Below are positions 15,513 to 62,484 of a stretch of DNA of 64,000 nt, piece by piece. A program made the translations under genes and the position numbers. The notes beneath the pieces are model-generated. The model ran no database searches. It saw only the letters and a program-made list of their open reading frames with translations, and was not told where the DNA came from. The stretch lies in NCBI GenBank assembly GCA_963771465.1, contig CAVYTU010000011.1:96001-160000 (forward strand), written 5' to 3'. Source of the DNA: an uncultured delta proteobacterium (lineage in GTDB: Bacteria > Desulfobacterota > Binatia > UBA9968). How positions within the stretch are numbered: the stretch's first letter is position 1; each line of letters begins with the position of its first letter.

Positions 15513-15859
15513 TGTTCTTCCATTGAGGCAACGCCAACTCGAATTATGCTTGCCAGTCATCGAGCAAAGTATCGTCTTCGCTAAAGGTCTTGCAAGGCGG
15601 CGGTGGATTAAAGTTTGCGGTGATCCTGACCGATCTAATGTAAAGAAGTTTAACAACGCGGCAGACTCACCTTAATGCCAAGGAACATGCGAGAAGCTAA
15701 AGGAGCGCGCGTTAGTTAATACGCGCCGGTGCGAGTGGTATGGATTTCGCTTCGTACAGGACTCTGGTTGATGCGATGAGCGGGCACCCCCATGTGGTCA
15801 CCATGGGTGTTCGGGAGCAAATGGTGAAACCGGCAGCCGAGTGCGCCGGATTTATTGCC

Positions 15860-26260: not shown

Positions 26261-27779
26261 CCGGTGACCTCGCGATGGCGCCTTTTAATGTCGTTAATGG
26301 GTCTTCTTGCTTGGCGCGCAGCTTGCCGCGCAGGGTGAAAAAGAGCGATACCGCGGCGATTAAAAAATAATGATCACCGCCGGCCGGGTCATCCAGGTGA
26401 AACCGTAGCTCGCCACCGAACGATAGAGATATTTTTCCATCAGATCGCCGAGCACCAGGCCGAGAATCATCGCCGGTCGCGGGTATCCCGCGTGGCGCAT
26501 GAAGTAGCCGAGGATGCCAAACCCCACCAGCACGACGAGATCCAAGGGATCGCGGTTGACGCTGAAGGCGCCCATCAGGATGAACACGAACATGATCGGG
26601 AACCATGAAGGTGTAGCGCACCTCGGCGAGCTTGGCGAGTTGGCCGGCGAGGCAAAAGCCGACGAGCGTGCCGGCGATGCCGGCGACTCCCTGTATCCAC
26701 ACCACGCTGTAGATCAATTCCGGCGTTTTCTTGATCATCTCTGGGCCCGGAACGAAACCCCAGGCGAGCAATGCGACGATGAACAGCGCAGTGCTTACCC
26801 CCTGGGGAAATCCCAGCAGTAAGGTCGTCACCAAATCGCCGCCGTCTTTGGCGTCATTGGCGCTCTCCGGCGCGATTACGCCGCGCACGTCACCGGTGCC
26901 GAAAGTTTGCCGGCCGCCCTTACAGCTTTGCGCGGCGTGGCCATAGGCGAGCCAATCGACGACTTGGGAACCTAACCCCGGTACGATTCCGACCCAGACG
27001 CCGACAAAACTACAGCGCACTACCAGCCACCATTCACGCAGGGTGTCGCGAACGCCGTCGAATAGACTGCCTTTGAGGGGCACTGGTTGCTGTTCGACGC
27101 CGAGCTTGGTCAACGCGAGATCGAGCGCCGACGGCACGCCGAAAATCGCCAGGGCCATAATGCTGATCGACATGCCGTCGAGTAGATAGGGCTGGTCGTA
27201 AACAAAGCGCATGACGCCGCTCTGGGCCTGCTGGCCTATGGTCGCGAGCAAGAGTCCGAATGAAGTTGCGATCAGTCCTTTGAGCGGCCGACTGCCGGCG
27301 AGCACGGCGACCATGCTCAAACCCCAGAGCATGATGACGAACAGCTCCGGCGAACCCATCAGATAGATTAACGGCTTGGCAGCGGGTATCGCGGCGATGA
27401 GGGTAAACGTGCCGATCATACAACCCATGCCGCCGGCCATGAACGACGCGCCGAGGGCCCGCCGCCCCTCGCCCTTCTTACCCATCGGGTAACCGTCGAG
27501 CACCGTCGCTTGCGAACCCGAGCCGCCGGGGATGCCGAAGAGGATCGGCAGATAGGCGGCGCAAATCGCGCTTACTGAGCTTGCGCCGATCAACAGCGCG
27601 ATGCCGGTGAGCGGCTCCCATTTGATCACCACCGGCAGTAAAATCGCGTAGACTAAAGGTATACCCAAGCCTTGCGGCGCCACGGCGGTGAAGGTGCCGA
27701 TGCTGACGCCGATCATCATGGCGAAGAACACTTTTAGTTGAAGGATGTTTAAGAAACCTTTGATGGCTGCATCGAACAG
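26250..27779 (-). CDS. tctA: TctA large TTT membrane subunit (frameshifts near 26600 and 26362; start uncertain)
   Basis: GIPG..SQATVLDGYPM, GVIAPESANDA, GFVPGP; ORF 26360-26593 supplies the missing TMs (YPRPAMILGLVLG). Confidence 0.85.
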   Translation of the reverse strand: MFDAAIKGFLNILQLKVFFAMMIGVSIGTFTAVAPQGLGIPLVYAILLPVVIKWEPLTGIALLIGASSVSAICAAYLPILFGIPGGSGSQATVLDGYPMGKKGEGRRALGASFMAGGMGCMIGTFTLIAAIPAAKPLIYLMGSPELFVIMLWGLSMVAVLAGSRPLKGLIATSFGLLLATIGQQAQSGVMRFVYDQPYLLDGMSISIMALAIFGVPSALDLALTKLGVEQQPVPLKGSLFDGVRDTLREWWLVVRCSFVGVWVGIVPGLGSQVVDWLAYGHAAQSCKGGRQTFGTGDVRGVIAPESANDAKDGGDLVTTLLLGFPQGVSTALFIVALLAWGFVPGPEMIKKTPELIYSVVWIQGVAGIAGTLVGFCLAGQLAKLAEVRYTFMVPDHVRVHPDGRLQRQPRSLGSRRAGGVWHPRLLHAPRGIPATGDDSRPGARRSDGKISLSFGGELRFHLDDPAGGDHYFLIAAVSLFFTLRGKLRAKQEDPLTTLKGAIARSPDEN

Positions 27780-48061: not shown

Positions 48062-48988
48062 TCAATTACCTAAGGATTTCTTGATGTAATTGTATGCCGC
48101 GATCGCCGCGGTGGCGCCGTCGCCGGCGGAGGTGATCGCTTGGCGCGCCGAATCTTGGCGAATATCGCCGACGGCGTAAAGGCCGTCGCGCGCCGTCTTC
48201 ATCCAGGTGTCGGTCGGAACATGGCCGGTGTCGCTGAGCTTTACGAGTTTCTGCAACAGCGCCGTGTTCGGTTGCAAGCCAACATAAATAAAAATGCCTG
48301 CCAATTTGACTTCAGATATTACTCCGGACGCTAAGTCACGCACGCGCGCGCCAGCGACGACTTCGTCGCCCAACACTTCTTCAATGACCGTTTGGTGACG
48401 CGGCGTGATCTTCGCGTTGTCTAACACTCGTTGCACATAAGTCTGCTGCGCGGAAAACGATTCGCCCTGATGGAAGAGCAAAATTTTCTCGACGTAATTG
48501 GTCAGCGTGAGCGCTTCCTGCAGCGCCGAATCGCCGCCGCCGACCACGCCGACGGTTTGACCGTTATACAATGGCCCGTCGCAGCTGGCGCAGTGGCTGA
48601 CACCGCGGCCCATGAGTTTCTCTTCGCCAGGGACGCCCACATGCTTGAGCATCGAGCCGGTGGCAACGATTACTGTTTTGGCACGATGTTGCTCTTCGTC
48701 AGTAACGACCGACCAGATATTTTCTTGTGCTTCGAGGCGCACGACTTCGGCGCGCTGAAATTCGGCGCCGTAGTCGGAAGCTTGGCGTTGCAGGTTCGGG
48801 CAAAGATCGTAGCCGGTGATTGCGTCAGGGAAGCCGGGAAAGTCTTCGATCTTCTCGATGCTGATCAAATGGCCGCCGGGAATATTCGATTCCATAACCA
48901 GCGTCGCCAGACCGTGTCGCGCAGAGAATAGACCGGCGGTTAAGCCGGCGAGTCCCGAGCCGACGATTATTACGTCGTAGTCTGCCAT
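48062..48988 (-). CDS. trxB: Thioredoxin-disulfide reductase
   Basis: GSGLAG, GRGVSHCASCDG, GGGDSALQEA, AVGDIR, AGDGATAA. Confidence 0.9.
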   Translation of the reverse strand: MADYDVIIVGSGLAGLTAGLFSARHGLATLVMESNIPGGHLISIEKIEDFPGFPDAITGYDLCPNLQRQASDYGAEFQRAEVVRLEAQENIWSVVTDEEQHRAKTVIVATGSMLKHVGVPGEEKLMGRGVSHCASCDGPLYNGQTVGVVGGGDSALQEALTLTNYVEKILLFHQGESFSAQQTYVQRVLDNAKITPRHQTVIEEVLGDEVVAGARVRDLASGVISEVKLAGIFIYVGLQPNTALLQKLVKLSDTGHVPTDTWMKTARDGLYAVGDIRQDSARQAITSAGDGATAAIAAYNYIKKSLGN

Positions 48989-49022
48989 ATCGCTTAGCTG
49001 TTTTAAGTTTCGCTTATTGAAG

Positions 49023-49079
49023 CGGAGTGATGGAGTAATGGAGCGTTGGGTTTCGGAAGCACTACTCCATTACTCCAGT
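49023..49079. repeat. Octamer repeat palindrome, same family as 46891
   Basis: cggagtgatggagtaatggagcgttggg facing cactactccattactccag. Confidence 0.7.
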
Positions 49080-49088
49080 TCGTTTACG

Positions 49089-50750
49089 TCATCTCCACTT
49101 ATCGACCGACACCGTCTTCTGATAATTGCAGCCCATGATGCGCCAGTAGCCGTTGGTCTCGCCGCCGACTACGACGATGTGAATTTCTTCGGGCTTGAAC
49201 ATATGCACCATTTCGTCGGGGGCGGCTTTGAGCTTGGTCGCGTAGGGTTCCTCGCCGAACGTCGCTCTAGGGTAAATATAATTCTGGATCAGTTGATAAT
49301 CCCAGTATTCACCGGCGGGCATGAGCGCATTGTCGTAAACCCATTCGATCATTTTCTCTTTGGTATCGAAGCCGCCGCGGTCGATAAACTGCCGGGCCGC
49401 GATGGGATCGAGCAGGAACGTCGGCGCGCTATGGGCGTCCATGCCGCGCAGCATGCTCTGCACATGCTGACGCCAATATTTTTGGCGCACGCCGAGAGTG
49501 AAAGCCGTCGAACGGCAGCCGGTGAAAATACTCACGGTGCTGTCGGTCGATTTAAATCCCTGTTGGACGTGAAACGGCGTCCATGGGTTGCGCTCTTCAT
49601 TCTCCGCGAAGGTGACGCTGCCATAGGCGTAGCCGTTACCCTGGGAGCCCATGTAGCTGTCGCCGGGAAGCGAGCCGCCCTGGAGATTTTGCGAGAGCAA
49701 GCCGTAGGCGCGGCCGATGGTTGCGTTGGCCTGATTATACGGCGCCATGGCGCCGGTGCCGGAGTTCATGGCGATTTCTTGGCGGATCGGTCCGTTGACG
49801 ACGACCATCGCGGCCATCGAACTGGTGGTGCTGCCGCGCGCGCTCACGCCGCTCGCCGCCAGCGCGAGGATCACGGGAAAATATTCCGGCCTCGCCCCCG
49901 CCATCACCGCGTTGACCGCGACTTGCTCGACGGTAAACTCCCAATGCTGGCGAAATTGGTTCGAGCGCAAATGACCGGCTATTTCGTCCGGCTTATGGCT
50001 CGTGTGCGCGAGCATTTCCTTGACCCGTTTTTCCGTCGGCAGGACAATCGGCAGCTTGTCGGTCCAATTATTTGCCAAAAACAAACTCTGCAGGTTGTCA
50101 TCCGTATCGGAGTCCACCAGTCGCGGCGTCGAGCGCTCAAATTTGACTTCCTTAAGACCATCTCCCTCAGCCGGACGGGTGAGCCCTTCGATAACTTCTT
50201 GCATGACCGGCCGGCCGCTGATCGGACTCTTGCCGTCGACATAGGCGCGCAGTTGGTCCGCGGTTTTGCCCATCACCGGTTGGGGCACGAAAGTGTAACG
50301 CGCTTCGGACATGCCGTGCATTCGGGTCACCGATTGCACCGCCTTCTCGAAGACGTTGGTGTGGATAGCGACGGTGGGCACACCGTATTTGCTATCGAGG
50401 GCGATTGCGTGCACGGCGACCGCCGGCGCGCAGGTGCTTCAATGGCCGACACCGATGACGGCGCCGTCGCCGTTGGCCTTGATCATCTCCCAGGTTTTCG
50501 GATCGTCCTTGGTGTAGACGCTCGACATTTCCACCAGCTTGGTTTTCACCGAGGGCATGTGCTCGGTGAACCAATTCTCCACCTGGCGCAGGAACAACCC
50601 CGAGTCGTCGAAGCGCGGGTCGACCAAATAGATCGTCTTGCCGTCCAAGCTATCCAGTCGAGGCGCCATCGCTTTCGGCGTGATCTTGGGTGGAAACCCC
50701 ACCGGGTTTAACACGGAAATATTTTGCGTTCCGTTAGTATCGTCAGCCAT
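49089..50750 (-). CDS. UGSC-like selenoprotein fusion (UxxC domain + WTDxLPxxxPT domain), 553 aa, Sec at codon 104
   Basis: ORFs 50439-50798 and 49089-50414 are in frame, separated only by TGA in GVGH-U-STCAPAVAVH; GAGGAGG RBS before ATG 50750. Confidence 0.82.
50411..50429 (-). promoter_or_regulatory. SECIS-like hairpin
   Basis: GCG(C)CGGC-GGUC-GCCGUGC at +10..+28 after the UGA at 50439-50441. Confidence 0.55.
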
Positions 50751-50821
50751 GGATAAATCCTCCTCGTTCTTCTTATGATCTAGCTGAAAAGTAATCAACC
50801 GGTTTCTTGGCTAGCACACGA

Positions 50822-60996: not shown

Positions 60997-62484
60997 TCAA
61001 CTTCGGCGGAATAGTTTTACGATCAAGGGAATGAGCAGCAGAACTAACGAGAGCCCGAGGATGCTCGCGGAAATCGGATGAGTGATAAACACCGTCGCGT
61101 CGCCCTGGCTGATCGCTAAGGCGCGGCGCGCTTGAGTTTCGGCGAGCGGGCCGAGAATAAGGCCGATCACCGCCGGCGCGACCGGAAGATCCCAGCGGCG
61201 CATGGCGAAACCGAGCAGGCCAAAGACATAAAGCGTGATAAGATCGACCACCGATTGGTGCAAACTATAGGCGCCCAGTGTCGCGAAAACTAATATACCG
61301 CCGTAGAGCAGAGGCTGCGGTATCTCGAGCACCTTCACCCACATGCCCACCAATGGAAGATTGAGAATCAGCAACAGCACATTGCCGATGTATAAACTCG
61401 CGAGCAGTCCCCAAACCAGGTCGGGTTGCATCTGAAACAACATCGGTCCAGGTGAGATGCCGTAATTTTGAAATGCACTGAGCAAGACGGCGGCGGTCGC
61501 TGAAGTTGGAATTCCCAAGGTAAGCAGCGGCACCAGCGCGCCGGTGGCCGACGCGTTGTTCGCCGCTTCTGGTCCGGCGACGCCCTCGATGGCGCCCTTG
61601 CCGAATTCCTCGGGGTATTTCGTCAGCTTTTTTTCCATTGCGTAGGAGAGAAAAGTTGGGATTTCCGCGCCGCCCGCGGGAATTGAGCCGAAGGGAAAGC
61701 CGATCGCCGTGGCGCGCAGCCAAGCGGGCCATGAGCGCTGCCAATCTTGCTTCGACATCCACAGCGAACCTTTCAGCTCTTCGATCTTTTCTTCGAGACG
61801 GCTTGTGTAAGCGGCGACGTAGAGCGCCTCGCCGACGGCAAACAGTCCGACGGCGAGCACGACCACATCGATGCCGTCCAACAATTCCGGCACGCCGAAG
61901 GCGAAGCGTGATCTGCCGGTTTGACTATCGATGCCGACAACGCCAAGCAGCAAGCCGAGAAACAAACTGGTCAGGCCGCGTGAGGTGGAGCTGCCGATGA
62001 CAGCGGAGACCGTGGTGAAAGCAAAAACCATTAGCGCGAAATATTCCGCCGGGCCGAATCTCAGCGCGACTTCGACAATGATAGGCGCGAGGAGTGTGAC
62101 GAGAATAGTCGCGATCGTGCCGGCGACGAAGGAGCCGATGGCACAGGTGGCCAGCGCCGGACCGGCGCGGCCTTTCTTCGCCATTAGGTTTCCTTCCAAC
62201 CCGGTCACGATGGAGGCGGATTCGCCTGGTGTATTGAGCAAGATCGTCGTCGTCGAGCCGCCGTACATGGCGCCGTAATAAATGCCGGCGAACATGATCA
62301 GCGCGCCGGTGGGATCGAGCTTCACCGTGAGCGGCATAAGCATGGCCACGGTCAGTGCCGGTCCAACTCCCGGCAACACGCCGATAAATGTTCCGAGCAT
62401 GACGCCGAGGAAGCCCCAGAGTAAATTAATCGGCGTCAGCGCAATACTGAAGCCGTGCATTAGCGAGGTGAAAGTTTCCACCAT
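60997..62484 (-). CDS. tctA: TctA large TTT membrane subunit
   Basis: [40 protein letters not shown]. Confidence 0.93.

Follow-up and report, generated by a model that had tools for sequence, protein, structure and literature searches.

A UGSC-family selenoprotein gene split by gene callers, and its thioredoxin-reductase-like neighbour, in an uncultured Binatia bacterium

Does the single TGA that parts two open reading frames (ORFs) on the reverse strand of a Binatia contig end a short gene, or is it read as selenocysteine (Sec) within a longer protein, and what would such a protein do beside a thioredoxin-reductase-like (TrxR-like) flavoprotein? The stretch analysed, called the window below, comprises 64,000 nucleotides (nt) from an uncultured delta proteobacterium (assembly GCA_963771465.1, contig CAVYTU010000011.1, positions 96,001 to 160,000). 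The ORFs at 50798..50439 and 50414..49089 (minus strand, window numbering) lie in one common frame with the single TGA at 50441..50439 between them, and read-through from the ATG at 50750 yields 553 residues, with Sec at position 104 (U104) within GVGH-U-STCAP. A preliminary description of this DNA had proposed a hidden selenoprotein from two same-frame ORFs split by one TGA that creates a U-x-x-C motif, GVGH-U-STC, and this arrangement is plainly seen. The locus holds a genuine selenoprotein gene split by gene callers, and its interest lies in the function of a family that is known but unexplained.

The strongest point for a selenoprotein is an RNA constraint over a predicted hairpin, a constraint limited to loci of the Sec form. 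The hairpin (stem 50432..50406, loop GGUC) agrees in its core with the G-loop hairpin that had been noted at +10..+28. Its fold alone is unexceptional, with a z of -1.25 vs shuffles, and the support for it therefore comes from comparison with other loci. Across 79 unique sequences of the Sec form, codons +4..+9 (GCG CCG GCG GTC GCC GYG) have an entropy of only 0 to 0.1 bit, and other alanine, proline and valine codons close by show 1.1-1.7 bits of synonymous variation. In forms that carry cysteine (Cys) at the corresponding position (22 unique sequences), codons +4..+9 vary by 0.72-1.53 bits and the hairpin is lost. Over the 36 nt past the codon, folding energy averages -16.2 kcal/mol in the Sec forms and -7.3 kcal/mol in the Cys forms.

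The codon itself alternates between Sec and Cys. Of the related genome loci, a set made up of the best 80 of 506 relatives, 78 have TGA at the U104 position and 2 have TGC. The 80 metagenome loci, which were retrieved with a Cys-form query, have the GVGH motif with TGA in 33 cases and with TGC in 28, and a GVGL-U-S[ST]C variant with TGA in 16 more, for totals of 49 TGA and 28 TGC; one locus without the N-terminus and two too close to a contig end were left uncounted. A protein database search returned more than 6452 relatives, of which the closest (80-93% identity) appear in the records as 441-residue proteins beginning just past the TGA. Those with 64-70% identity run the full length (546-558 residues), align end to end with the 553-residue frame and, in 14/14 full-length homologs aligned, have Cys at the U104 position (C-S-T-C). 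The alignment across the TGA that the preliminary description had suggested thus speaks for Sec, and its concern that reads might carry TGC or TGT is not borne out by the contigs of four public soil runs, which list no difference at 50439-50441. One RNA-library contig spans 50398-50458, which is too little for a claim of transcription. Public records such as P0003-P0011, P0022 and P0026 give Sec forms as 441-residue proteins that lack the first 104 residues and the active-site residue, and some of these 441-residue records carry the name 'UGSC family (seleno)protein'.

The genome to which the window belongs (6.9 Mb in 19 contigs) also encodes the means to insert Sec: selA, selB, selD and tRNA-Sec, for which a genome check had been advised, all score above their family cut-offs. 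Decoding of the UGA in the 553-codon frame as Sec, as predicted from these comparisons, may be regarded as established short of an experiment. The selD gene (contig C14:200711-201637) has an in-frame TGA of its own, and selenophosphate synthetase itself is therefore probably a selenoprotein.

To which family does the protein belong? One domain spans the TGA, because the match to Pfam PF24696 (85.8 bits vs a cut-off of 25, E 5e-24) covers residues 13-171, U104 included; the earlier impression that the N-terminal part is UGSC-like was therefore sound. A Pfam hmmscan of the N-terminal domain at E<=10, with weak matches filtered out, listed PF24696 alone. On the NCBIfam equivalog model NF041046 the protein scores 61.2 bits, under the cut-off of 125, and paralogs in its own genome score 136.7, 133.5, 110.9 and 95.2 bits, so that two pass. 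Its motif is U-S-T-C, not the literal U-G-S-C, and the paralogs have U-G-S-C or U-G-A-C. Judged by its sequence, the 553-residue protein is a divergent U-S-T-C branch of the known UGSC family.

The available portions of a 2008 survey already describe the UGSC family and a 'UGSC/Unknown_1' fusion, hold a thioredoxin-like fold to be likely for UGSC, and count the family among the most abundant selenoproteins of ocean and freshwater metagenomes, with 255 Sec sequences in the Global Ocean Sampling (GOS) survey (Zhang and Gladyshev, 2008; PMC2398784). With the family and the UGSC fusion in print and homologs named by NCBI, this is not a new selenoprotein, and the word 'hidden' holds for gene callers only. 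As far as those portions of PMC2398784 describe it, the published family is like the protein here in a PF24696 domain across the Sec codon, in a UxxC motif with Sec/Cys alternation and in being fused to a conserved but functionally uncharacterised domain; the protein here differs in its U-S-T-C motif, in its NF041046 score (61 bits, <125) and in its flavodoxin/CheY-like model vs the thioredoxin-like fold proposed. A 2026 review, in the part available, still gives the function of UGSC as uncharacterised.

An AlphaFold2 model of the full-length protein reaches a pLDDT of 93.8 and a pTM of 0.92. The N-terminal domain is modelled as a five-stranded alpha/beta arrangement of strand-helix units, in which U104 comes after strand 3 and before helix 3. 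Structure comparison gave CheY/flavodoxin-like matches, with Z of 8-11 over residues 34-198, values that are common for such a strand-helix arrangement; thioredoxin is absent among the 50 structural matches listed, although one could lie beyond them. In the model, this domain looks flavodoxin/CheY-like.

The remainder of the protein is mostly the large uncharacterised domain to which the preliminary description had seen the UxxC domain fused. Residues 205-553, called the partner domain here, match nothing in Pfam or NCBIfam (in Pfam not even at E<=10), and Pfam at E<=10 gave chance-level rows only for two stand-alone paralogs of the domain. Modelled alone, it reaches a pLDDT of 92.7. Structure comparison with Foldseek returned nothing at E<=0.001, the best match (E 0.011) being a class I fumarate hydratase at TM 0.22-0.27, and a wide VIA search gave a best Z of 5.6 over 71 residues, with 5 chains at Z>=5 and the first 200 residues barely covered. 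The best E of a PDB sequence-profile search was 0.43, and the ESM Atlas offered nothing but clusters that were unnamed or in part carried UGSC. The domain has the motifs WTDxLPIVLPT, NAVMAG, NGPIR, ANATIGRA and FAENEE, and its conserved polar residues include D231, T239, R347 and E383. The stand-alone form is widespread: a database search with a stand-alone paralog found at least 120 close proteins of 345-384 residues, unnamed or 'hypothetical' and without a Pfam match. Relatives of 709-741 residues (P0223, P0261 and P0266) were considered as new fusions and rejected, since each consists of two partner domains in tandem and has no UGSC domain in its chain.

The two domains keep company well beyond this locus. 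The genome has three fused and two split UGSC/partner pairs, the locus here included and all with TGA, and one decayed copy; in the split pairs the C-terminal domain has its own gene of ~350 codons, which comes after a UGSC gene of ~185 codons. The other units of this genome have a different hairpin, with the stem CGUCGUGG/CCACGACG. Across the phylum, UGSC matches occur in 7/61 sampled genomes, with exactly one TGA in 26 of the 29 matches, and a search of five others of the phylum's genomes found 8 UGSC matches, every one adjoining or fused with one of 8 partner-domain matches. Adjacency or fusion in these five and in the window's own genome makes the C-terminal domain a regular companion of UGSC. 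Another genome of the phylum (G034) has 15 UGSC matches, a large expansion of the fused form: nearly all fall in frames that reach 558-607 residues on read-through, with one TGA in 13 matches and none in 2. In two of the five genomes searched the partner gene carries an N-terminal extension, matching AhpC/TSA (PF00578, 50 bits) in one and, weakly, thioredoxin with CATC in a second. Thiol-redox modules, as predicted from such matches, recur around the partner domain.

The gene that had been noted as trxB does come next on the same strand (48988..48062), 100 nt 3' of the selenoprotein gene. Its product scores 321 bits on TIGR01292, under the cut-off of 343.45, and a canonical trxB elsewhere in the genome scores 415 bits; on the AhpF-homolog model TIGR03143 it reaches 258 bits, below the curated cut-off. 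C133-A-S-C136 is invariant in 21/21 aligned neighbours, and the glycine motifs GSGLAG and GGGDSA are kept. The HRRxxxR stretch is the NADPH motif of thioredoxin reductase. The neighbour has HQGESFSA where the canonical TrxB has HRRDKLRA, in a stretch that is variable among 8 aligned neighbours, and the description of the system as NADPH-driven is weakened by this replacement and by the shortfall on TIGR01292 (321 vs 343 bits).

Conservation of this synteny, which had been put forward as a check, proved considerable. Counting same-strand genes at loci with at least 400 nt of downstream sequence, a TrxR-like gene lies directly downstream in 34/74 genome loci and 32/72 metagenome loci, the latter divided into 19/28 Cys, 13/15 GVGL-U and 0/29 GVGH-U forms. 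When both sets are placed on one tree (FastTree, 151 rows), 67 of the 139 informative rows have the gene directly downstream. They belong to several deep clades: that of the Cys forms, that of the GVGL-U forms, two Chloroflexota groups and the Binatia-type clade, of which the window locus is a member. The raw counts overstate independence because kin share labels; well-supported branches nevertheless force at least 5 changes of neighbour state, and the most parsimonious count is 9. Retention of the neighbour across clades that are only ~54-70% identical argues for a working link. On this comparative evidence the TrxR-like gene is a conserved candidate partner of the UGSC fusion and probably the dedicated reductase of the selenoprotein. 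Within the accessible portions of the literature retrieved with the whole word 'UGSC', whose selenium and trace-element papers are surveys and reviews, no tie of the family to a TrxR-like gene was found.

A selenoprotein with a partner domain, followed by its own TrxR-like gene, is therefore probably a small self-contained reductase. The reading that we favour, with somewhat better than even confidence, is a TrxR-like-driven Sec/Cys reductase, in which the selenium-sulfur (Se-S) bond of a cytoplasmic UGSC and partner selenoprotein would be re-reduced by the neighbour. The hairpin directly past the UGA lets it be decoded as Sec, as the comparison with other loci shows, to give one cytoplasmic protein of 553 residues whose UGSC domain is predicted to adopt the flavodoxin/CheY-like alpha/beta fold. 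A redox-active U104/C107 pair at the start of a helix could then cycle between selenol/thiol and selenenylsulfide, and the C-terminal domain of 350 residues, the putative obligate partner of UGSC, would most likely bind and position the substrate. After each two-electron turnover the Se-S bond may be re-reduced by the CASC disulfide of the TrxR-like protein, a role to which the conserved synteny points and which a thioredoxin-fold domain, fused to the partner, may take in other lineages. By analogy with the UxxC proteins GrdB and PrdB, the selenoprotein probably cleaves a small molecule reductively or reduces it.

The grd operon includes thioredoxin reductase and thioredoxin genes, and proprotein partners accompany GrdB and PrdB. 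Like the protein here, these are UxxC selenoproteins. They work with another protein that handles the substrate, and a thioredoxin system encoded nearby recycles them, as is proposed here for the partner domain and the TrxR-like neighbour. The UxxC motif of PrdB appears in Table 2 of the 2008 survey, as far as that source was available (PMC2398784). Unlike those systems, the partner domain here has no invariant Cys or serine for a pyruvoyl group, and the locus has no separate thioredoxin gene. GrdB and PrdB are the closest working analogy, one of presumed mechanism only, with no homology detected at E<=10. A second comparison is with AhpF and AhpC, a pair built on a dedicated flavoprotein disulfide reductase. 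The likeness lies in a TrxR-type CxxC flavoprotein encoded beside the single protein that it reduces (the neighbour here scoring 258 bits on TIGR03143, as said above), and the difference in that the neighbour, at 308 residues, is without an N-terminal thioredoxin-like domain and the acceptor is a Sec/Cys domain of another fold.

Could the observations be explained otherwise? That there is no selenoprotein at all, and that a genuine stop codon, or else an assembly error, parts two genes of 104 and 441 codons at the TGA, is hardly credible. Gene callers do split the frame, and the closest database homologs are filed at 441 residues, but those calls begin inside the single Pfam domain that crosses the TGA, Sec and Cys alternate at exactly this codon, only Sec forms show the RNA constraint, the genome has complete Sec machinery, and independent assemblies and runs also have the TGA. 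It is a weightier proposal, and still a rather unlikely one, that the UGSC and partner selenoprotein is real and the TrxR-like gene a mere neighbour, the protein relying on the general thioredoxin or glutathione pool or on no reductase at all, as a peroxidase-like enzyme or a selenium/sulfur carrier might. No TrxR-like gene lies within 6 kb of the genome's four other UGSC/partner pairs, the canonical trxB is available elsewhere in it, and the Rokubacteria/Methylomirabilota-type clade, the largest on the tree, has the neighbour in 0/62 rows (54 informative, 8 too short). A mere neighbour would hardly be expected, however, where the same TrxR-like subtype is kept beside both Sec and Cys forms in clades ~54-70% identical, where the gene is a divergent second copy, and where the partner domain is elsewhere fused to thioredoxin-fold domains. 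The preliminary description had gone further and proposed an NADPH-driven reductase acting on a solute captured by flanking TctC receptors, which now seems very unlikely. TctC-family genes do flank the pair in the window and in Binatia-type loci, but TctC-like neighbours are found only there and at L107, the one exception among Chloroflexota- and Rokubacteria-type loci; the genome has 64 TctC matches, 8 of them within the window, the nearest TctA genes (26598-27725 and 61165-62424) are more than 10 kb off, and the neighbour lacks the NADPH-type motif seen in the canonical TrxB.

The dedicated reductase that we prefer has its own difficulties, and several observations weigh against it. Absence of the neighbour from all rows of the largest clade is one. 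The loss of the canonical HRRxxxR from the TrxR-like protein bears on its electron donor, the partner domain has neither an invariant cysteine nor a recognisable catalytic motif, and there is no sequence relation to GrdB/PrdB or to another Pfam family at E<=10. Neighbourhoods vary by clade and indicate no single pathway. The CMD-family and Thioredoxin_9 neighbours conserved in Rokubacteria-type loci, which were considered as redox partners there, were rejected, having no CxxC.

A broader claim can be put forward tentatively, and we think it possible at best: that UGSC, its partner domain and the TrxR-like flavoprotein make up a selenoenzyme system, self-contained and so far undescribed, in aerobic soil bacteria. 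In it the flavoprotein would feed a Sec/Cys pair on a flavodoxin-like domain, and the pair would reductively cleave a bond in a substrate bound by a catalytic domain of new fold. If true, such a system would parallel, outside fermentative anaerobes, the glycine and proline reductases of clostridia. The locus offers a compact test system, in which the Sec domain and its partner already form one chain and a candidate dedicated reductase adjoins, and natural Cys versions in Alphaproteobacteria-type sequences could be expressed without Sec machinery. Public gene calls shorten the Sec forms to 441 residues and so cut off the active site. Coordinates of the gene, of its parts and of the related units are collected in Table 1.

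Table 1. Features of the selenoprotein locus (window numbering) and related units on other contigs (C14, C17, C18) of the same genome
Feature	Position	Strand	Details and basis
Shine-Dalgarno-like GAGGAGG	50759..50765	-	8 nt before ATG 50750; read off the sequence
Predicted selenoprotein gene, UGSC and partner domain	49089..50750	-	553 codons and terminal TGA 49091..49089
In-frame TGA, predicted Sec U104, first residue of U-S-T-C	50439..50441	-	Comparison of loci and homologs
Putative bacterial selenocysteine insertion sequence (SECIS)-type hairpin	50406..50432	-	Apical loop GGUC 50421..50418; fold and codon constraint
UGSC domain, residues 13-171	50238..50714	-	Pfam PF24696 match
Partner domain, residues 205-553	49092..50138	-	Confident model, no family match
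TrxR-like flavoprotein, 308 residues, C133-A-S-C136	48062..48988	-	TIGR01292, 321 bits
Four other intact UGSC/partner units	C17:61013-62686, C18:174671-176284, C17:441152-442963, C17:457662-459446		Two fused (C17, C18), two split; all Sec
Decayed UGSC/partner copy	C14:928545-929400		Several stops

The wider surroundings, for which genes were picked by a codon-position GC rule, differ between groups of loci. Binatia-type loci have amidohydrolase_2, SDR, an NMT1-type binding protein, MetE-like and arylmalonate-decarboxylase-like genes, and Rokubacteria-type loci a CoA-transferase III, a Zn-dependent alcohol dehydrogenase, a luciferase-like monooxygenase and GFO/IDH/MocA. Downstream in the window, on the same strand as the selenoprotein gene, are an arylmalonate-decarboxylase-like gene (PF17645, 44913-45641, minus strand) and a gene resembling the MetE catalytic domain (PF01717, 45773-46876, minus strand), the latter recurring in 8 loci, that of the window included. 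A TctC-family receptor island covers 34044-63963 of the window (C11:130044-159963). At gathering thresholds, Rfam has no family at the selenoprotein locus; elsewhere in the window, at 15760-15844 on the plus strand, it places a c-di-GMP-II riboswitch aptamer (RF01786) at 53.9 bits vs a gathering score of 53.5.

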